DNA of 64,000 bases from Candidatus Poriferihabitans sp. Lineage in GTDB: Bacteria; Pseudomonadota; Gammaproteobacteria; Arenicellales; Poriferihabitantaceae. The stretch spans positions 976,967 to 1,040,966 of the forward strand of contig OZ244855.1 in NCBI GenBank assembly GCA_965220975.1, written 5' to 3'. The notes under the pieces were generated by a model. It was given only the letters and a program-made list of their open reading frames with translations, did not search any database and was not told the origin of the DNA. Every line of letters begins with the position of its first letter. Within the stretch, counting starts at the first letter, position 1. A program made the translations under genes and the position numbers. Shown piece after piece: positions 6,008 through 61,015 of the stretch.

Positions 6008-6910
6008 TTGAACGCTTTTCGCTCTAACATCACCGCAATGCCCGATTTGATACGGGGGATCTTGTGGATGATCTTTTCTGGATTCATATTTGTACTTGTT
6101 GGTGTACTGATCAAGTTGATGGAATCCGGATTACCGGCTATTCAAAGCGCATTTCTTCGCTATGTGTTCGGTTTGATCATTATTCTTCCCCTGTACCGAA
6201 GGTTTCACTGGAATAGCTTAACAAGACCGATTCTGGGTCTTTATTCGCTACGAGCCATGTTCCATGGATTCGCAGTGATGTTGTGGTTTTTTGCGATGGC
6301 AACCATTCCGCTGGCTGAGGTTACAGCGATTGCCTACAGCCTGCCGATTTATACTACAATCGGTGCGGCGCTGGTGTTCAAGGAGAAAATACGCATTCGA
6401 AGAGTCATGGCAGTAGTTATCGGATTTGCTGGAACATTAATTATTCTCCGTCCGGGTTTGGTGGAAATTTCATTAGGCTCACTGGCACAAGTTGCAGCTG
6501 CAATCGGTTTTGCTGGCTCGTTTCTGATTGCGAAAAAGCTGGTTTCTGCAGAAACTCCGACCAATATCCTGTTCATGTTGACGGCAGGATGCGGACTTGC
6601 ATTAATGCCTGCTGCACTAGCAGTTTGGGTTACTCCATCTTTGATCGATACAATCATTCTGGTTAGCATCGCGTCTCTGGCAACTCTTGGTCATCATGCA
6701 ATAACGAAAGCCCTGATTGCAGCCCCGCTTACGGCAACTCAGCCGTTTATATTTGTCCAGATGATCTGGGCAATTGGGTTTGGCTATATCCTGTTCAATG
6801 AAACGCCAGATGTATGGGTTGTTGTTGGCGCATTTATCATCATCGCCTCAACCACCTATCTCGCTCATCGAGAAATTGTAGCGCAGAAAAAATATGCACT
6901 TCATGAATGA
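6008..6910 (+). CDS. EamA/RhaT-type DMT-superfamily transporter (10 TM)
   Basis: 300 aa with two repeated five-TM halves, typical of EamA. The track start at 6008 is TTG; an alternative ATG lies at 6038. Confidence 0.65.
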   Translation: MNAFRSNITAMPDLIRGILWMIFSGFIFVLVGVLIKLMESGLPAIQSAFLRYVFGLIIILPLYRRFHWNSLTRPILGLYSLRAMFHGFAVMLWFFAMATIPLAEVTAIAYSLPIYTTIGAALVFKEKIRIRRVMAVVIGFAGTLIILRPGLVEISLGSLAQVAAAIGFAGSFLIAKKLVSAETPTNILFMLTAGCGLALMPAALAVWVTPSLIDTIILVSIASLATLGHHAITKALIAAPLTATQPFIFVQMIWAIGFGYILFNETPDVWVVVGAFIIIASTTYLAHREIVAQKKYALHE

Positions 6911-22241: not shown

Positions 22242-22249
22242 GTGAATTG
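22242..22249. repeat. Left 8-bp target-site duplication GTGAATTG
   Basis: Identical octamer at 24160..24167, immediately outside the two inverted ends. Confidence 0.8.
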
Positions 22250-24159
22250 GTAACTACTCGTCCACTTGATTGCACTTGAGGGGAAAACATCAAGCGAGAG
22301 CTGGTTTACCGCAGGACCCGCCAGTAACCGATCATGTGGCTTGAGGTTGCAAGTCCGAGTTCTCCACGATCCCGCCCAGCTCGAGCAGATAGGTCCGGAA
22401 AGACGGGATCGGGCACACAAACTGATTCCTTGATTCTCGGTGCAAGGCCCCCTGGTGCACGAGGTGAACGAAGAAGGCGTCTGCATCCATGCCTGCCGGC
22501 AAGCGATATTTCCGAGGATCCGCCTCATGAAGGTCTTCCATCAAGCGCCTGATCCGGGAAGAGCCCTGATTGCTGTCCATCGCAGCCATCACTTCGGCCG
22601 TCAGCTCCATGGCATCTTTCATCTCGCTTGAAAACTGACCGTCGCAATACCCGTCCCTTCCGGTCTTGATCTCGGCCTGTATCCTCTCCCATGCCGCCCT
22701 GCCGAGATCGCCCTCCGTTTTCAGGGCTTCTGCGCCCAGTGCCTGCAAGACGACATGCAGATGCCGGGGCCACCCGTCACAAGGCTGAAGCAGCCGATCG
22801 ACCTCATCATCATGTCCGGCAGCATCAATGCCAAAATGCGCACAGGACCTTTCCATGAGTTCCTGAACTTCATGATCCGGGAAACGCCCGATGTTGTGTT
22901 TCTGCCTGTGCGGCATGCGGGTCAGTCCCATCTTGCGGGCCGAGTATTCGGTATCGCTGAGACCCGCCAGCACCAGCGCAATCGGCAGCCCGCAACCGTC
23001 ATGGAGACTCTGAAACAGCTTGGAGAGAGGATCTTCGGAATCACGTTGAAAGCGCTGTGCCTCGTCGATGGCCAGCACGATCGGACGGTCAAACCCGCCA
23101 TGCTGTTCAGCCCAGTCCCCCAACACATCCCAGTGCATGCGCGGTCTTGCTGGCTCCATGGTGGTCTCTTGCTTGCCGAAGGCCTTGACTGGACCCAAGC
23201 CAATCCCAGCCTCTCCGCCGGATGTCCGAACGGAATGCGATAAAAACTCCTCGGCAGCTGTCGGGTTGATGCTCCGGGCTAGCGGTTGAAGAATGTCAAC
23301 GGGCTCCTCGATTACGCCAGACTCCAGCACTACCACCAGCGGGAGCTTGCCGACACTCTCCGTATACAGTCTCTCCGGATTGTGCCTGATCTGGTGCACG
23401 ATCGAGCTCTTGCCCGCCCCCGGCGCGCCCTGGATAATGCGCGTCGTTTTCCCTGCGCCATGCTGATCGGCTCCCGAGCCCTTCCACACCTGTCTGGCCG
23501 CTTGCGCAATGTCGTCGAGCACTTCGGCCCGTCCAACAAACACCAGAGGAGGCTTCCCTTCCGTTCGCTTGAGAAAGGACTCCAGTTCTTTTTTCTGATC
23601 AGGATTCATCGCTACACCTCGCCACGGGCATGATCATTGAATGCATGCAGACATGGTATACAGAATAAAACGGATCACCGAAGACTACTCAAGTACACAG
23701 GCAAATAAATCTAAATCATTGCCTGAAAGCGGCATCCCGTTCGCTGTACCCGAAATTTGACGATGGACTGAACGATCTGACAGACACCACGAAACTTTCA
23801 CATGTGCCCGGGACCGGAAAACGATCTCCTTGAGCTCCTGTGCCCACTCTCCCGTACTGATTGCATGGATATTCGAGGCCTGCAAGAGAAAACGGCATGG
23901 CGAAATACATGCCTGCAGTCTATCACACCATGCTGCTGGGAATGGAACGCTCACTCGCTTTCACCCTGTCATGACAACCCGAACCAATCGATCAAACTGT
24001 CTTCATTTCGGACCGATCGAGCTCAACGAGCTTTCCACTCACGCGAGACTTCACTGCAGATGGATTGGCCAGACTGCTGGTTCGGGAACTGAAGTCTGAA
24101 ACTTCAGCAGAGTACGGTTCCAAAATATCTGCTCGTCACCAATAGGGGCGAGTAGATAC
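22250..24159 (-). mobile_element. Non-autonomous IS66-family-like cassette (mobile insertion cassette) carrying one AAA+ ATPase gene
   Basis: The ends are GTAACTACTCGTCCAC (22250 onward) and GTATCTACTCGCCCCT (reverse complement of the 24159 end), matching at 11 of the first 14 positions. Both start GTA(A/T). A perfect 8-bp direct repeat flanks the element. The interior is visibly GC-rich compared with the flanks. No transposase ORF is present. Confidence 0.75.
22332..23609 (-). CDS. ORC/Cdc6-like (AAA_16/AAA_22-type) ATPase, cargo of the cassette
   Basis: 425 aa. LVFVGRAEVLDDI precedes the P-loop, Walker A is IQGAPGAGKSS, and Walker B is IVLAIDEAQRF. The C-terminal half is helical. GAGGTG lies 6 nt upstream of the ATG. 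Confidence 0.7.
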   Translation of the reverse strand: MNPDQKKELESFLKRTEGKPPLVFVGRAEVLDDIAQAARQVWKGSGADQHGAGKTTRIIQGAPGAGKSSIVHQIRHNPERLYTESVGKLPLVVVLESGVIEEPVDILQPLARSINPTAAEEFLSHSVRTSGGEAGIGLGPVKAFGKQETTMEPARPRMHWDVLGDWAEQHGGFDRPIVLAIDEAQRFQRDSEDPLSKLFQSLHDGCGLPIALVLAGLSDTEYSARKMGLTRMPHRQKHNIGRFPDHEVQELMERSCAHFGIDAAGHDDEVDRLLQPCDGWPRHLHVVLQALGAEALKTEGDLGRAAWERIQAEIKTGRDGYCDGQFSSEMKDAMELTAEVMAAMDSNQGSSRIRRLMEDLHEADPRKYRLPAGMDADAFFVHLVHQGALHRESRNQFVCPIPSFRTYLLELGGIVENSDLQPQAT

Positions 24160-24167
24160 GTGAATTG
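24160..24167. repeat. Right 8-bp target-site duplication GTGAATTG
   Basis: See 22242..22249. Confidence 0.8.
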
Positions 24168-49811: not shown

Positions 49812-50103
49812 TGGCGTCCCCGAGAGGATTCGAACCTCTGACCTGTCGCTTCATACCCGCCACAGTTTTCACTGCCAGTTAATGACTGTTTGGAGTCTGG
49901 ACTATCTCTTGACCATGAGCATGACTGCCCGTAGGCCCCACCCGTTTAGTCTCTATACCTTCCGTTGTCGGCTTGGCTAGGGATTGCCATCGGCTTAAAC
50001 CGTTAAGGTTTCCCCTAATTTGAGTGGATTCATCCAGGGAGTTTCCAGCCCCGATGCCCAATATTTAGGAGGCGACCGTTCTATCCTGCTGAACTACGGG
50101 GAC
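49812..50103 (-). tRNA. tRNA-Arg(CCU) interrupted by a group I intron (exons 50103..50067 and 49851..49812; CCA encoded)
   Basis: The spliced sequence is GTCCCCG-TA-GTTC-AGCAGGATA-GAAC-G-GTCGC-CTCCTAA-GCGAC-AGGTC-AGAGG-TTCGAAT-CCTCT-CGGGGAC-G-CCA. It folds as a canonical 77-nt cloverleaf with anticodon CCT. Confidence 0.85.
49852..50066 (-). ncRNA. Group I intron (IC3-like), 215 nt, no ORF
   Basis: Inserted after U36 of the anticodon loop and ending in G (...GGGUAUG|AAGCGAC). The core strings are UCAAAUUAGGGGAAACC, AUGGCAAUCCCUAGCCAAGC and GAAGGUAUAGAGACUAAACGG. They closely parallel the bacterial tRNA-intron (Azoarcus-type) core as I remember it. Confidence 0.8.
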
Positions 50104-50256
50104 GCATAATCACTATTTTAACAGAATCTAGATTGGGCGGGTCAGGCGCTACTTGATAACGGCAGAGTCGGGTTATTTATTTAACTTATTGTATTATAAT
50201 AATTTTATTATAAGTAAATTTAGGTTTAGAAATAACTGAAATCCGCATCACATATG

Positions 50257-50810
50257 GAGTTATGGCTGAAAGTAGTGCGCGGGGCGGAAAGGGGTTCATC
50301 CAGCGGCTACCGTGTTCTGATCTGATTGTACCTCGATTCCGTCCTGGAACTGCACTTCCTCGATGACCTGTCCCAGCCTGCGGAACCCGCGCAGCCTTCG
50401 CCAGCGGGATTCCGCGCACTGGCCGAGCTTGAACATCATGTCGAGCATGGTGTCGCGGCTCAGGCAGCCCCGGGTCGTCCGGGTCCGGTGGCGGGTCGTG
50501 GCGAAGGTCGACTCGATCGAGTTGGTGGTGCGAATGCTCTGCCAGCGCTCGGCCGGAAAGTCGAAGAAGTTCATCCGTTTCTCGCGATCCTCGATCAGCT
50601 TCACCGCCGCGCCAGCAACTGCTGGGCGCCGTCGCACAGAATCCCGGTCAGGGCGTCCTCAAATTTTCCGATTTGCGAATAGTCAATAATGTTATCATCT
50701 CTCATGGTGGCGTACCTCCTGGTCAGCTTTTTAGTTAATGGAATAGTTAATCCGGCTACGCCGTCTTTTCAACCCCCTCCCACCCCGCGTACTACTCTCG
50801 ACCATAACTC
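50257..50810 (-). mobile_element. 554-bp internally deleted IS256-family element
   Basis: Terminal inverted repeats are GAGTTATGGCTGAAAGTAGTGCGCGGGGCGGAAAGGGGTT (50257 onward) and GAGTTATGGTCGAGAGTAGTACGCGGGGTGGGAGGGGGTT (reverse complement of the 50810 end). The transposase remnant has the N-terminus MRDDNIIDYSQIGKFEDALTGILCDGAQQLL. It is joined out of frame to the C-terminus FFDFPAERWQSIRTTNSIESTFATTRHRTRTTRGCLS. Confidence 0.85.
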
Positions 50811-51104
50811 ATCTCAGAAGCCCATATTGTATAAATATGTCTCGGCGGCGAGATAATAAATTGAAGTGAGAATCAAAAATTCAAAGGGTGAAGAAAATTC
50901 TGGAGTTGCAAGAGTTGCTCATTATCTCAATGAGAGAGACACTCGGGTTGTGTGCAGGTCGCCCGACGTTGGGCGGCAGGAGAACTACCGAAATTGTCCG
51001 ATTTCAAAATTGAAGCAAAAGTTCTCCATTTTCGAGAATACGGTCTATAATCTGCCTCAGCCAACTGAAAATGTAAAGGAATCAAGTAGAGGGGATTCGG
51101 ATTG

Positions 51105-54008
51105 ATGGGTCGGAACACTGAAGGAGTATTCAACGTCATTTTAGCCAATGTATTACGTGAGATGCATCCACGCTGGCATCAATACATTGAAGCCGAACAG
51201 ACACGTAAATTCGTTAACCATTGGAGTCGGCAACCAGACCTATTAATCCACCACCCCAAAGGTCTGCCTGTAATCGTAGAAACTGAGTTTATGCCGGGCC
51301 GAACCGTCGAAGATGATGCCAAGAGTCGTCTTGGAGAGATGCTGGAAGCAGACAGCAATCCGATTGAGCAAACCATTGCGGTACGTATACCTCAGCAACT
51401 CAGCGTCGCGAGTCAGGGAGATTTATCGCGATTGATTCGAGAAACAACCGATTTTCATTTTTGTGTATTTTCCGCGGGAACAAAAGATGCCATTCGATGG
51501 CCCGAAAATGGCTGGCTGAAGGGTAATGTCAAAGATCTGGCTACTCTGATCGAACATGCTTCTCTGTCCGAAAATCGAATCGCCAGTGGAGTAAGAATTC
51601 TTGAAACAGGTGTTGCCCAAGCAAGTTACATGCTTCGAGAAGCAGGAAAAGACGCACCTGATGCGCTCAGAAACATCGCAGAAGAACTAAGACAGCAAGA
51701 CTGTGAACAGACTTCCCGCATGGCCATGGCAATAGTTGCAAATGCCATGATATTTCATAATGCTATCGCTGGACAAGAGAACATCAAATCCATTGATGAA
51801 CTTCGTAATTTTCGAGGTCGCTTGCTGAAAGTATATTTGCTTGAACACTGGCATTTCATCTATTACAACATCAATTACTGGCCAATCTTTTTCATTGCTC
51901 GACAGATCATGTTGCCCATTCCTGATCGCACTGCGCACAATATTTTGAACAGGTTAGCCAAAGCAGCTAGTCAACTAGCCGACCTTGGGACAACCAGCCA
52001 GCTGGATTTAGCCGGAAGAATGTTCCAGCAACTGATTACCGACCGGAAATTCCTGGCTACCTTCTATACCTTACCCAGTTCCGCCACCTTGCTAGCAGAG
52101 TTAGCCGTTTCAAGACTAGCCATTGATTGGGCAAATGAAAAAGCCGTTACTGGATTGCGGATTGGGGATTTTGCGTGTGGAACGGGGGCTCTACTGAATG
52201 CCGCATATGGCGCTGTGATGGCGAGATATCGGCGAGCAGGCGGAGATGATCAGGCGATCCACTCACAGATGATGGAACATGCTTTGGTGGGTGCTGATAT
52301 CATGCCTTCAGCAGTGCATTTAACGGCAACGATTTTATCGAGCAGGCACCCAAATATCACGTTCGGAGATACGTCTATTGGAATCTTAAGATATGGAATG
52401 CCGGAAGAAGGAAGTGGTCATAAGTTAAGTTTGGGCGCCTTGGATTTCTTAGAGGACGAAGCGACAATGCCAATTTGGGGCACAGGACACAAGAACGTTC
52501 ATGGTATCAAGGAGGATAGCAAGCAGGAATTACATATCAAGCATGGATCTTTCGATTTGGTCATTATGAATCCGCCTTTTACACGACCTACGGGTCAAGA
52601 AGCGGAGAGGATCGGCGTCCCAGTCCCTTCTTTCGCAGCTTTTGGAACGGAAGAAGAGATTCAGCGAGCGATGTCAGTTGAACTCAAAAAAATGACCAAG
52701 CCCGGCATGGCTGGTGACGGGCAAGCGGGGCTGGCATCAAACTTCATCGACTTGGCGCATAAAAAACTCAAGCCAGGTGGCGTTTTGGCACTGATATTGC
52801 CGTCTACCTTTATTCAGGGCGATGCATGGGAAAAATCTCGCAAGCTGATTCATGAGCACTATCATGACATTTGCATCTTTAGTATAGCGGCCACTGGTTC
52901 TACCGACCGTGCGTTTTCTGCAGATACCGGCATGGCGGAAGTAATGGTGCTTGCTACTCGCCGTAGCAAGGAGAGCAAGTCAGCTAAAACTGATGCTGCT
53001 TATATCAACCTGCACAGGAGGCCCCAATCGATGCTGGAAGCTTTTGCAATGGGCAAGCCGGAAATCAATTTCGAGGCAGGTGCAAAGGACGGTTCGTATG
53101 AAATTGGCAAAGAACGGGTTGGCAACTGGATTGTAGCTGAGTTGTCCGAGGGAGGATTTGCGGGTGTTCGTGAAAATGATGTTTCCCGATTTGCTCATCA
53201 CTTGGAACGAAGCGAATTGGTACTTCCCAGGATGAGTAAGACCGTCAGGGTCCCTCTATGCCCACTTTCTGAGCTTGGAGAACGTGGGCTGTATCATATG
53301 GATTTGACAGGAACAGAGCAAAATAGCGATGGACAACCACGAGGCCCGTTCGAAAAGAAACTGCTAATCCAGGGTGAAATTCCAACATATCCCATGTTAT
53401 GGTCACATGATGCGAAGCGCGAGACCTCGTTTATAGTTGAAATCGATTCTTGTGGTAGGCCTCGTATCGACTGTGAGGGTCGGGCACTAAAGGCGTGGCA
53501 GAAAACAGCGACTCGGCTACACTTCAATCGGGATTTCCGGCTCAACTCGCAGCCATTGGCGGCTTGCATGACTCGGGAGCCATCAATTGGCGGTCGGGCC
53601 TGGCCGAACTTCGTATGCGAAAATCAAGGATGGGAGCTAATTTTGGCTTTGTGGGGAAACACTACACTCGGATTGATCGCATTTTGGTGGGCAGGCACGC
53701 GCCAACAACAAGGAAGAGCCTGCCTACCTATATCCCTATTGCCCGCCTTGCTTACGCTTGATGTCCGTAAATTATCCAGTGAACAATTATCCAAAGGAGA
53801 TGAAATATTCGAGAGTTTTGCGGATCAACATTTTCGTCCGGCCAATGAGGCGTGGGATGATGCGGTGCGCCAAGACCTGGATCGATCCGTATTGATCGAT
53901 CTTTTGGAGTTGCCTGTTCACATTCTGGAACCTCTGGATCTGCTCAGGAAGCAATGGTGTGCAGAGCCAACCGTTCATGGAGGAAAAAACACAAGACCAG
54001 CCATCTAA
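51105..54008 (+). CDS. Type IIG/IIL-like restriction-modification fusion: PD-(D/E)xK-like N-terminus, gamma-class N6-adenine methyltransferase, and C-terminal specificity region
   Basis: About 967 aa. The N-terminus has QPDLLIHHPKGLPVIVETEF. SAM motif I is IGDFACGTGALLNAAY (about 52161..52208). Motif IV is MNPPF (NPPF codons 52569..52580). About 350 aa after the methyltransferase core have no recognised motif. Confidence 0.65.
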   Translation: MGRNTEGVFNVILANVLREMHPRWHQYIEAEQTRKFVNHWSRQPDLLIHHPKGLPVIVETEFMPGRTVEDDAKSRLGEMLEADSNPIEQTIAVRIPQQLSVASQGDLSRLIRETTDFHFCVFSAGTKDAIRWPENGWLKGNVKDLATLIEHASLSENRIASGVRILETGVAQASYMLREAGKDAPDALRNIAEELRQQDCEQTSRMAMAIVANAMIFHNAIAGQENIKSIDELRNFRGRLLKVYLLEHWHFIYYNINYWPIFFIARQIMLPIPDRTAHNILNRLAKAASQLADLGTTSQLDLAGRMFQQLITDRKFLATFYTLPSSATLLAELAVSRLAIDWANEKAVTGLRIGDFACGTGALLNAAYGAVMARYRRAGGDDQAIHSQMMEHALVGADIMPSAVHLTATILSSRHPNITFGDTSIGILRYGMPEEGSGHKLSLGALDFLEDEATMPIWGTGHKNVHGIKEDSKQELHIKHGSFDLVIMNPPFTRPTGQEAERIGVPVPSFAAFGTEEEIQRAMSVELKKMTKPGMAGDGQAGLASNFIDLAHKKLKPGGVLALILPSTFIQGDAWEKSRKLIHEHYHDICIFSIAATGSTDRAFSADTGMAEVMVLATRRSKESKSAKTDAAYINLHRRPQSMLEAFAMGKPEINFEAGAKDGSYEIGKERVGNWIVAELSEGGFAGVRENDVSRFAHHLERSELVLPRMSKTVRVPLCPLSELGERGLYHMDLTGTEQNSDGQPRGPFEKKLLIQGEIPTYPMLWSHDAKRETSFIVEIDSCGRPRIDCEGRALKAWQKTATRLHFNRDFRLNSQPLAACMTREPSIGGRAWPNFVCENQGWELILALWGNTTLGLIAFWWAGTRQQQGRACLPISLLPALLTLDVRKLSSEQLSKGDEIFESFADQHFRPANEAWDDAVRQDLDRSVLIDLLELPVHILEPLDLLRKQWCAEPTVHGGKNTRPAI

Positions 54009-54010
54009 TG

Positions 54011-54046
54011 GCTGATATGTGTTATGCCGATATCAGCATAATTTTG
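54011..54046 (+). terminator. Rho-independent terminator after the RM-like gene
   Basis: Stem GCTGATAT (54011..54018) / ATATCAGC (54030..54037), followed by ATAATTTTG. Confidence 0.55.
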
Positions 54047-54352
54047 TGGAACGGGTGATGCGAATGAGCAAAGTGGAGCAGAAAATATCTGGCACCTTCT
54101 GTTCCTTCAAGGTGCTACAAGCCTATTGCCGATGTGCGAGCTACTTACCAACCCTGAATATGTTCGGATATAACCCCGCTAACTCCGATTGAACTCGTAC
54201 TGAAGGGCAAGGCAGTCAACATACTCAAAAATAGCTATACAAAATAATCACACTCGGAGAAAATTATCCCTCAATTATTCATAACACCGTTTTCATGGCC
54301 TTTTTGCCCCCTTTATTTCATGTGCAATCAAGGGGGCGGGCGAGTAAGTTAC
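54047..54352 (+). mobile_element. 3-prime terminal fragment of an IS66-family (ISBst12-like) element: transposase C-terminal remnant plus terminal repeat
   Basis: Translation gives VERVMRMSKVEQKISGTFCSFK..., then after a frameshift ITPLTPIELVLKGKAVNILKNSYTK*. This resembles the conserved ...ERDIRMxKVKQKISGxFRS... tail. The fragment ends ...GGGGGCGGGCGAGTAAGTTAC at 54352, which is the reverse complement of a GTAAC... IS66-type terminus. Confidence 0.6.
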
Positions 54353-59067: not shown

Positions 59068-59423
59068 ACCATTCTGTTTTACTCGACAGAGCTTTTTATC
59101 CAACAAACCCCAATTCAAGCTTGGCAAGTATTCGGTCAATCCCATGTAGAAACGTTCGTTCCTGGTAATCACCCCTTCGGCCATGAAATCCCCGGATTAC
59201 AATTGACTCGACAACTGCATCATCCATACCGGTTGAGTCGCGACCAGAATTGCGAGATAGTTGTCCAAAAGCCGCCTGGAATGGATCGTTGTCATCCATG
59301 CAAAATCAGGAAACAGCATCTCAATGGCGATGGCCTTTTACTAGAACATCGATTCGTCAACTAATACATTACAAGGCAATAAACAGCAACTGCTCGCTTC
59401 AGCAATGTCAAGATGATCGCATC

Positions 59424-61015
59424 ATGAGTGAAAAAACACGAACAGATCGCCATCCGCTACCGCTTGGACTTGAATCATTTCGCAGACTTCGAGAGAGGGG
59501 CTGTTATTATGTGGATAAAACGCCCCTGATCCGGCAAATGATCAACGAGGGTGATTTCTACTTCCTCTCTCGTCCGTGCCGTTTCGGCAAGAGTCTGCTG
59601 GTCGATACCTTGCAGGAACTGTTCGAGGGCAATGAGTCGCTGTTCGAAGGCCTGGACATCCACCCGCACCGGGACTGGTCGGTCAGGCATCCGGTGGTTC
59701 GTCTGACCCTGGATGGGGTTGTCAGTACGCCAGAGAAGCTGGAAGACAGCGTGTCAGGCCAGCTGCACAAGACTGGAAAGAACTTCAACCTGGAACGCCC
59801 TCCGGCAAAGTATGCTGCGGAACGGCTTCGGTATATCCTTTTCGAATTGCATCAGGCGACTGGCCAACAGGTGGTGGTACTGGTCGATGAACATGACAAG
59901 CCGGTGCTGGACGTACTGGAAGATGACGAGAAGGCTAAAGCGAACAGGGATAGCCTTCGGGAGATCTACAGCATCCTGAAGAGTGCTCAAAAACACATCC
60001 GCTTCGTGTTCGTGACCGGCATCACGATGTTTTCCAAGGCCAGTTTTTCATCCGGCCTGAACAATCTCACGAACATCAGCCTGTCGCCGAGGTATGCGGC
60101 CATCTGCGGCTATACGGACCAGGATCTGGAGACCGTATTTGCTCCGGAACTGGAAGGTCTGGATCGGGACAGGATTCGCGAATGGTACAACGGCTACAAC
60201 TGGCTGGGCGAGGACAAGCTCTACAATCCCCACGACATTCTGCACCTCTTTTATGAACGTGAATATACGGAGCACTGGTTCGAATCCGGGGGCCGGGTTA
60301 TCTCTACCGGATACTGGAGAAGAACCGGGTCAGTCCCCTGCAGCTGGAAAACCTCGTGGTCGAAGCCTCCTCTCTGAAAAAGCTTGAACTGGGCACGTTC
60401 AGTCCCGAGGCCCTGCTGTTCCAGTCCGGTTATCTGACCATCAAGGAAATGGAACTGCAAGACAAACGCATTCTGTACCATCTGGCCTTTCCGAATTTTG
60501 CAGTACAGAGAAGTTTCAACTACGGGATGGCCGAGCACTTGACCAAGCAGGGTGAGCAAGTTACAGTTCCGGGAAAGGGACTGCTTCAAGCCCTGGGAGA
60601 GAACGACTTTTCTGCATTCAGGCAGAAAATTCGGGAATTGCTTCCGAATCTTCCGCATGCTTGGCATGACAGCGGAAAGCTTGGTCATCATGAGTCCTGG
60701 TATGCGAGCATGCTGTACATGAGTTTTCGAACAACAACCGCCAACCTGGCAGTCGAGGAAATGACCAGTCAGGGCCGCTCGGACATGGTGCTGCTGCATG
60801 AGAATCAGGTGTTCGTGTTCGAGTTCAAGATGGTGAAGGGCTAAAGAAACATGGAAAGAAAGACCAGGGAACGTCTGGACAGGGCGATCGAACAAACTCG
60901 CGCAAAAAAGTATGCCGAGAAGTATCTTGACTGCCGGGAACCGATTCACCTGATCGGCATGGCATTTGGCGAGAAAGCTCGAAACCTGCTGGATATTCGG
61001 GTGGAGAGGCTTTGA
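59424..61015 (+). pseudogene. AAA-ATPase-like plus PD-(D/E)xK (PDDEXK_9-type) gene, disrupted by one frameshift and one in-frame TAA
   Basis: The start reads MSEKTRTDRHPLPLGLESFRRLRERGCYYVDKTPLI...RPCRFGKSL. The frame switches at the G5 run 60288..60292: WFESGG followed by PGYLYRILEKN continues in another frame. A TAA at 60842..60844 interrupts ...FEFKMVKG*RNMERKTRERLDRAIEQTRAKKYAEKY. The stop is at 61013..61015. Visibly GC-rich. Confidence 0.7.

Follow-up and report, generated by a model that had tools for sequence, protein, structure and literature searches.

How does a gene for a single P-loop ATPase come to stand, without a transposase gene beside it, between insertion sequence (IS) ends that are themselves enclosed by a perfect 8-bp direct repeat? 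This question is posed by a locus of Candidatus Poriferihabitans sp. (assembly GCA_965220975.1), which we analyzed in a 64,000-nt stretch of the genome (OZ244855.1, forward strand, positions 976,967-1,040,966), hereafter called the window, and in paralogous loci from the same assembly. The element under study spans window positions 22250-24159 and lies between direct repeats at 22242-22249 and 24160-24167. The likely answer, in our view, is that it represents an IS66-derived mobile insertion cassette (MIC) moved in trans, with the ATPase as cargo and with copies that are subject to selection and gene conversion. We apply the term MIC because the element combines IS ends, a duplication of the parental length and a passenger gene with the lack of a transposase. 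The same type of element had been proposed in a first-pass annotation of the window, and the idea has gained from the finding of three complete copies with different duplications, IS66 ends and no transposase. The element comprises the following features.

22242-22249, unstranded: left copy of the 8-bp target-site duplication GTGAATTG; the duplication is also present in a sister genome

22250-22290, plus strand: GTAAC-type terminal inverted repeat with subterminal region, GTAACTACTCGTCCACTTGATTGCACTTGAGGGG; gene-distal end, resembling the end of an IS66 relic at 54 kb

22332-23609, minus strand: sole gene, encoding a 425-aa P-loop NTPase with a predicted AAA+/STAND-like core and C-terminal winged helix

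23610-24124, minus strand: non-coding leader, conserved among full copies

24125-24159, minus strand: GTATC-type terminal inverted repeat (24146-24159, the last 14 nt) with an imperfect terminal palindrome, GTATCTACTCG...CGAGCAGATAT

24160-24167, unstranded: right copy of the 8-bp target-site duplication GTGAATTG

The two copies of GTGAATTG enclose a segment of 1,910 bp, as the first-pass annotation had read. Directly inside them, the ends GTAACTACTCGTCC (22250-22263) and GTATCTACTCGCCC (reverse complement of 24146-24159) are identical at 12 of 14 positions; the inverted ends described earlier are therefore present, while their count of 11 matches needed correction. The octamer alone is unremarkable, with three matches in the window versus 4.1 expected. 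The combination of an 8-bp direct repeat with adjoining inverted repeats matching at 12 or more of 14 positions, 0.5-5 kb apart, occurred once in the real window versus 0.023 times per shuffle in 300 first-order Markov shuffles. Windowed GC content bore out the impression of an interior richer in GC than its surroundings, with values of 0.57-0.62 across the open reading frame (ORF) and 0.48-0.53 across the leader versus ~0.45 in the flanks. The flanking genes, for a GST and an aminoglycoside-kinase-like protein, are ordinary chromosomal genes with ~100% identity in the sister genome, and the deduced empty site between them reads ...ctgctttgcaaGTGAATTGaatcatcaatc... The GTATC end has a peculiarity of its own that is shared by the window (24125-24159) and two loci treated further below, L004 (4495-4530) and L007 (4495-4529): its terminal ~11-13 nt are repeated in inverted form ~10-14 nt further inward, in effect creating a second outward-facing end motif beside the terminus. 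At -5.2 kcal/mol, the corresponding DNA hairpin is weak in the window; those of L004 (-10.8 kcal/mol, z -5.9) and L007 (-11.8 kcal/mol, z -7.9) are strong.

The first-pass annotation had suggested looking for further copies in the source genome. We inspected eight loci of this genome, including the window copy; the other seven are listed with their identity to the window element.

L002: 91%; complete from end to end; duplication CCGAAATG

L085: 69%; complete from end to end; duplication AGGATTGT

L083 and L084: 87% and 83% over the retained positions 519-1910; the leader is broken by an IS256-like element

L209: 84% over the retained positions 546-1910; GTAAC end kept, other end not

L210: 81% over the retained positions 260-1896; both termini absent

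L211: 75%; nothing but the ORF retained

In L002 and L085, which share the ends and bear duplications of their own, homology to the window element begins exactly with the outermost base of one terminal repeat and stops exactly with that of the other. These data bear on the view that the segment belongs to some larger known element, or arose from chance repeats, and that its true ends lie elsewhere. The terminal repeats are indeed short (14 nt), and inverted repeats of this length arise by chance at many places in the region. Nevertheless, homology to independent copies starts and stops precisely at the element ends, each copy has its own 8-bp duplication against the low chance expectation given above, and the adjacent GST and kinase genes, nearly unchanged in the sister genome, are ordinary chromosomal ones. 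Because three complete copies bear three different perfect duplications, we treat chance and displaced ends as excluded and give this view next to no credence; the fragment scenario, which the first-pass annotation had named as one case that would undo its reading, was thereby put to the test and did not hold. The copies with differing duplications establish past mobility of the cassettes, which may be active at present as well. A protein search further detected, at 90% identity, at least 18 paralogue clusters on the 3.37-Mb source contig and at least 12 on the 3.22-Mb sister contig.

Several of these loci also contain other mobile or accessory genes. An IS256-family (Transposase_mut) relic lies in the window at 50296-50637 on the minus strand, in the region 50220-50800, and its end sequence also interrupts the leaders of L083 and L084 (~2700-2967). 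A gene for an IS605-type TnpB (OrfB_IS605/Cas12f-like) directly adjoins the GTAAC end of the cassette copy in L209 (4366-5337). In L084 (5148-6265), a ParE-toxin gene is located between the cassette and a further solo GTAACTACTCGCCCCC end at 6265, and may represent different cargo on the same kind of ends.

The ends had been assigned to the IS66 type on the basis of their first letters and the length of the duplication. A metagenome scan with the end motif GTAACTACTYRNCCNCTTG returned 120 loci; in 24 of them the terminal motif GTAACTACTC..CC.CTTG stands directly beside a single-ORF IS66-family transposase gene, and in none is the ATPase gene present. Complete autonomous elements of 1.48-2.3 kb carry an identical 16-nt repeat, GTAACTACTC.CCCC, at both ends, and the first 16 nt of the GTAAC end of the cassette match the termini of these IS66-transposase-encoding elements. 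Perfect 8-bp duplications, TATTTTAT in L195 and CACGATGG in L125/L160, accompany some of the autonomous elements, which places the earlier assignment on firmer ground. Among the same-ended elements, L174 (357-2605) and L037 (4685-7003, from a sponge-associated Paracoccaceae metagenome-assembled genome (MAG)) as well as L133, L127, L201 and L100 are ~2.25-2.3 kb long; in the two that were checked, L174 and L037, the single transposase gene is preceded by one for an adenine methyltransferase of the D12 class (Dam-like).

A second line of evidence comes from the IS66 fragment that the first-pass annotation had spotted at 54 kb.

54031-54352, plus strand: IS66-family relic; the decayed C-terminal ~49 codons of a transposase lie at 54031-54177, and a terminal repeat reading ...GGGCGAGTAAGTTAC has its last base at 54352

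Pfam returned no match for the short relic peptide, and its IS66 identity was obtained from tblastn instead: the translation of 54031-54177 is 53% identical (E 1.8e-10) to the element-borne transposase of the metagenomic L174. Its identity to a Pseudanabaena transposase annotated as IS66 is 44%, and plasmid matches of the relic carry an IS66 family annotation. The similarity between the relic end, whose last base is 54352, and the GTAAC end of the cassette extends past the generic terminus and includes a common subterminal CTTGATTGCAC. Judged by these similarities, the relic is evidence that the cognate transposase family was once present in this genome. From the likeness of the two ends it had earlier been argued that the ATPase gene occupies the place and orientation normally held by the transposase gene; this argument does not generalize and is not supported, since the gene points the opposite way relative to these end types in L004 and L007.

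Within the cassette, no transposase was detected by Pfam in the ORF or in the six frames of the leader, and tblastn searches of the window with two IS66 transposases matched the 54-kb relic only. ORFs corresponding to tnpA and tnpB of the classical three-ORF IS66 group are likewise lacking in the cassette, so that the earlier statement that it contains no tnpA, tnpB or tnpC is accurate; the related autonomous elements have no tnpA or tnpB either, being of single-ORF or methyltransferase-plus-transposase types. In tblastn, neither the IS66 transposase nor the D12-type methyltransferase of the 2.25-kb variants showed similarity to the interior. The cassette thus displays the GTAA-starting terminal repeat of IS66 members at one end, a GTATC variant at the other and the 8-bp duplication, and it lacks the DDE transposase (TnpC) that characterizes an IS of this family. 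Because no transposase gene was detected in it, we regard it as a derivative and not as an IS. We propose that the cassette has kept two termini that a transposase would recognize, the GTAAC end and the palindromic GTATC end, and that an IS66-family DDE transposase supplied in trans would move it, with an 8-bp staggered cut of the target by this enzyme giving rise to the GTGAATTG duplication.

The product of the single gene (22332-23609, minus strand) contains the motifs GAPGAGKS and LAIDEAQ, assigned to Walker A (G61-S68) and Walker B (D182-E183), and a GAGGTG sequence precedes its ATG by 8 nt. Pfam returned generic P-loop matches barely above threshold, to AAA_16 (32.8 bits, cut-off 32.6) and AAA_22 (28.9 bits, cut-off 27). 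A sequence profile search reached Cdc6/ORC1 weakly, and profile searches against NCBIfam, PADLOC and PHROGs yielded nothing informative. A confident AlphaFold model built on 83 homologues (predicted local distance difference test 88, predicted template modeling score 0.86, loop 128-155 disordered) was compared with the PDB using Foldseek, which returned the archaeal Walker-type ATPases 2qen and 2fna, ORC/Cdc6 proteins and the NB-ARC domains of plant NLRs (E 1e-9 to 1e-6, probability 1.00, 11-17% sequence identity). The predicted model combines a P-loop core bearing Walker A and B with a helical lid and, in its C-terminal 50 residues, a winged-helix-like arrangement of helix, two strands and helix, as in AAA+ proteins of the ORC/Cdc6 type and STAND proteins. 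Invariant in the 83 homologues are Walker A, the Walker B residues D182 and E183, R27, W280-P281-x-H283, G387 and P402/F404, while H382 and H385 are nearly so (≥90%). The G-W-P and H-x-x-H-Q-G motifs presumably sit where the GxP and MHD-like motifs of STAND proteins lie. The fold check that had been recommended for the ORC/Cdc6-like ATPase of the first-pass annotation therefore agrees with that label, and on the modeled structure the protein is more precisely STAND-like.

Some longer homologues possess C-terminal ankyrin repeats or unassigned extensions of 200-260 aa, by analogy an architecture in which a nucleotide switch is combined with a variable sensor. Together with the predicted fold and the conserved Walker motifs, these extensions suggest a protein that senses or oligomerizes in an ATP-dependent manner. 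We picture the gene product as a nucleotide-switch ATPase that would unite an AAA+/STAND-like domain for nucleotide binding with a helical lid and, at the C terminus, a winged helix. Its cellular role would probably be in conflict, defense or host interaction.

We then asked where else the family occurs, counting clusters among 1.84 billion representatives and loci in species-representative genomes. The family is rare: a threshold of E≤1e-30 gave 111 clusters, and one of E≤1e-10 gave 453. The species-representative genomes contained at least 413 loci, 80 of which were listed; nearly all of these 80 belong to MAGs of Arenicellales, Ca. Poriferihabitaceae and Paracoccaceae, lineages that we take to be sponge-associated, with up to ~17 listed loci per genome. 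Globally rare, the ATPase family is thus greatly expanded in sponge-associated Gamma- and Alphaproteobacteria, where we envisage that it was amplified to dozens of diverged copies.

Whether the homologues also lie between such ends had been set as a check on the cassette proposal, and the outcome is divided. L002, L085, L004 and L007 conform, whereas most homologous loci do not. A strict scan for a duplication plus repeats in 82 loci recovered the source-genome copies only, and we rejected the notion that all homologues reside in cassettes. With relaxed BLAST settings, clear flanking inverted repeats were visible in five of 79 further loci. Nucleotide homology in other Arenicellales and gammaproteobacterial genomes is confined to the ORF, with no flanking repeats seen and at most ~200-450 nt of shared upstream sequence, the latter among close paralogues only. 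L004 (2551-4530) and L007 (2551-4529), both from Ca. Poriferihabitaceae OZ244914.1, have both end types, with the ATPase gene inverted relative to them and without matching duplications. The L004 cassette also abuts another solo GTAACTAC end.

Paracoccaceae MAGs contain eight homologues between ends that are not of IS66 origin. These have the form TGTCGCGACAGGCATATTTTTCCAC (TGT...ACA) with subterminal repeats and delimit units of 2.0-2.8 kb (4.0 kb in L079) in which the ATPase homologue is the sole gene.

L048, 2475-4585: perfect 5-bp duplication CCTGA

L051, 2633-4656: perfect 5-bp duplication ACGGC

L061, 2664-4924

L066, 2742-5000: perfect 5-bp duplication GCAAG

Further units of this kind: L070, L023 and L079

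With their unrelated ends and 5-bp duplications, these units point to a second kind of non-autonomous cassette, not derived from IS66, that has packaged the ATPase gene. The appearance of the ends resembles that of Tn7-, Tn402-, Mu- and IS21-style termini.

The distribution of homologues informs the question of what the ATPase does for the cassette. It could be a transposition accessory factor like IstB of IS21, TniB/TnsC of Tn402/Tn7 or MuB, binding target DNA and recruiting or regulating a transposase made elsewhere, so that the cassette would be a helper-bearing parasite of IS66 elements. Such a function would fit an AAA+-type ATPase that has a winged helix predicted to bind DNA and that matches AAA_22 marginally. 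Purifying selection on the ORF in independently transposed copies would agree with it too, as would the fact that short cassettes of two end types carry this gene and no other. Nonetheless, no IstB_IS21, TniB, TnsC or MuB model matched at E≤1, and the best structural matches are ORC/Cdc6 proteins, archaeal ATPases and NLRs. Same-ended IS66 elements transpose without this gene, as the 120 end-motif loci illustrate; it is oriented differently with respect to the ends in L004 and L007; clear flanking repeats are restricted to the five of 79 loci mentioned above; and a helper that serves two unrelated transposase types is not expected. To our knowledge, IS66 elements are not known to use an AAA+ transposition regulator. 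We therefore consider the accessory function improbable, including the target-helper variant that had been floated in the first-pass annotation. Since most homologues lack such ends, the ATPase looks like cargo and would not be part of the transposition machinery.

Copies of this cargo have been preserved. The ratio of nonsynonymous to synonymous substitution rates (dN/dS) between copies ranges from 0.22 to 0.41 at synonymous divergence (dS) of up to ~1, which indicates that the ORF has been maintained by selection across old and young copies. The sister genome carries an orthologous insertion (L208, 4664-6576) with the same duplication and flanks ~100% identical to the window. A refuting case set out beforehand, the ATPase at the same locus without the direct repeat, was accordingly not encountered there. 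The L208 interior is 78-98% identical to the window element in 100-nt windows, and its ATPase (433 aa) is 85% identical. In columns 901-1000, L208 reaches 0.97 identity to L084/L210 versus 0.87 to the window copy; in columns 1701-1800, the values are 0.98 to L002 versus 0.85 to the window copy. Such divergent patches that match other paralogues suggest gene conversion between cassettes. The copies would thus be kept intact by purifying selection and reshuffled by exchange among themselves.

The 550 nt upstream of the ORF contain no conserved ORF and form a leader that is conserved even in the 69%-identical L085, with indels that are not multiples of three. A decayed gene was rejected as its source, as six-frame Pfam searches gave no match and tblastn no similarity to the IS66 transposase or methyltransferase. 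An 89-aa ORF within the leader (23685-23954, minus strand) is broken by non-triplet indels in L085 and was discarded. We also dismissed a structured RNA: there was no Rfam match, the RNAalifold covariation term was positive (+2.9, four sequences), and the hairpin CTGAAGT...ACTTCAG shows one compensatory change, too little evidence for a structured RNA. A promoter and terminator scan found nothing beyond shuffle expectation. The proximal ~200-290 nt alone accompany the gene in the end-less loci L003 and L210, and for this reason the distal part of the leader probably belongs to the transposon end.

Several observations weigh against an IS66-derived cassette with a STAND-like cargo. The terminal repeats of the window copy are imperfect, as their two mismatches in 14 positions attest, and the cassette model offers no explanation for the long conserved leader. 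Complete copies account for three of the eight inspected source-genome loci, the others being interrupted or truncated, and the cassette family may be largely decaying. A search for an empty site via the neighboring GST protein found only the occupied orthologous site of the sister genome; the insertion is common to both genomes, and neither an empty site nor presence/absence polymorphism was seen. An intact partner transposase was not found by a word-based protein search with the 59-aa relic as query, which did not scan the whole source genome, and because of this result mobilization in trans is something that we infer. On the protein side, nSTAND1 remained below threshold (18.5 bits versus a cut-off of 27.1, residues 23-345) and NACHT reached E 0.26. 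The 425-aa ATPase has no additional domains and hence no effector or sensor of the kind found in STAND NTPases. PADLOC-DB returned a P-loop-level match only (mad8, E 0.03, 17 residues), which does not place the protein in a defense family, and no PADLOC defense-system model backs its suggested role.

Some of these points are shared by the idea that the cassette is a dead fossil of an old insertion whose cognate transposase is gone, the family now spreading and diversifying by recombination and duplication and not by transposition. The orthologous insertion in the sister genome, the decayed state of the transposase relic in the window, the missing close intact relative in the word-based search, the copies truncated or interrupted by other insertion sequences and the strong divergence of copies (dS as given above) would all follow from it. 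Set against these are the perfect 8-bp duplication and recognizable ends even in the 69%-identical L085, from which we conclude that transposition continued while subfamilies diverged, and the partial genome coverage of the transposase search. We regard the fossil as unlikely on balance, though it retains appreciable weight, and retain the cassette mobilized in trans as our preferred explanation.

Elements of comparable architecture have been described. They include MIC231, derived from IS231 of Bacillus cereus (De Palmenaer et al. 2004, as cited in PMC3281130), and the qnrD mic elements of Proteeae (PMC3913671). Like the present cassette, they combine terminal repeats of a parent IS and a duplication of parental length with one passenger gene, no transposase and presumed mobilization in trans. 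The present cassette differs in its parent family, IS66; in its cargo, a STAND/ORC-like ATPase from a large recombining family of intragenomic paralogues; and in the strong divergence of its copies (69-91%), unlike a recent burst. We found no report of an IS66-derived MIC in the literature, in line with the first-pass annotation, which knew of no described IS66 derivative of this kind. The closest autonomous relatives are single-ORF (ISBst12-like) IS66 elements, represented here by 1.5-kb transposase-only and 2.25-kb methyltransferase-plus-transposase forms (L195, L125, L174 and L037). The cassette shares their 16-nt terminal repeat GTAACTACTC.CCCC and 8-bp duplications, but has no transposase, a GTATC variant with a terminal palindrome at one end and an unrelated interior. 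As for the protein, the predicted core, lid, winged helix and Walker A and B motifs are common to ORC/Cdc6 proteins, 2qen/2fna and STAND proteins (NB-ARC; AAA_16, nSTAND1), whereas the low identity (11-17%), the nSTAND1 score below cut-off, the lack of an effector or repeat sensor domain and the lack of a replication-origin context distinguish it. With IstB, TniB/TnsC and MuB it has in common that an ATPase lies inside a transposable element, and the TGT...ACA ends with 5-bp duplications of some homologues are similar to Tn7/Tn402/Mu-type ends; in contrast to these ATPases, it has no sequence-model match to them, no co-encoded transposase and none of them among its top 50 structural matches.

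Other features of the window lie at a distance from the cassette.

49812-50110, minus strand: region with a group I intron-like RNA at 49882-50079 (RF00028, 45.6 bits versus a gathering score of 50, E 1.6e-10), flanked by tRNA-half-like sequences in which ARAGORN calls no tRNA

51102-54008, plus strand: 968-aa ORF with an Eco57I-type restriction-modification methylase domain

59250-60377, plus strand: unrelated predicted ATPase, 375 aa, apparently truncated (AAA-ATPase_like, PF09820, E 5e-56)

The Eco57I-type ORF is located between the IS256 and IS66 relics, beside the intron-containing tRNA-like region, a layout that looks like an integrated island.

With the cassette described here, IS66 joins the few IS families that have given rise to gene-carrying cassettes without a transposase, and its several independent, well-bounded copies offer material for testing mobilization in trans. 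The more interesting lead is the ATPase family itself, which has expanded in sponge symbionts, is carried by cassettes of two unrelated types and evolves as a mosaic. Our data flag it as an unannotated family: ~111 clusters pass E≤1e-30, yet there are at least 413 loci, and almost all of those listed come from sponge-associated bacteria. Orthologous insertions whose proteins are 15% apart between identical flanks suggest rapid diversification by gene conversion. A tentative and rather unlikely extension of these findings is that the family constitutes a mobile, mosaic recognition or immunity family, amplified in sponge symbionts of two bacterial classes until each genome has dozens of diverged copies, packaged time and again as the only gene of non-autonomous cassettes with unrelated ends (IS66-type in Gammaproteobacteria, TGT...ACA-type in Paracoccaceae) and gene-converted; if true, it would be comparable in logic to variable multigene families. 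Should the protein be a sensor or immunity component, the cassettes would illustrate a route by which symbionts disseminate and recombine genes of this type.

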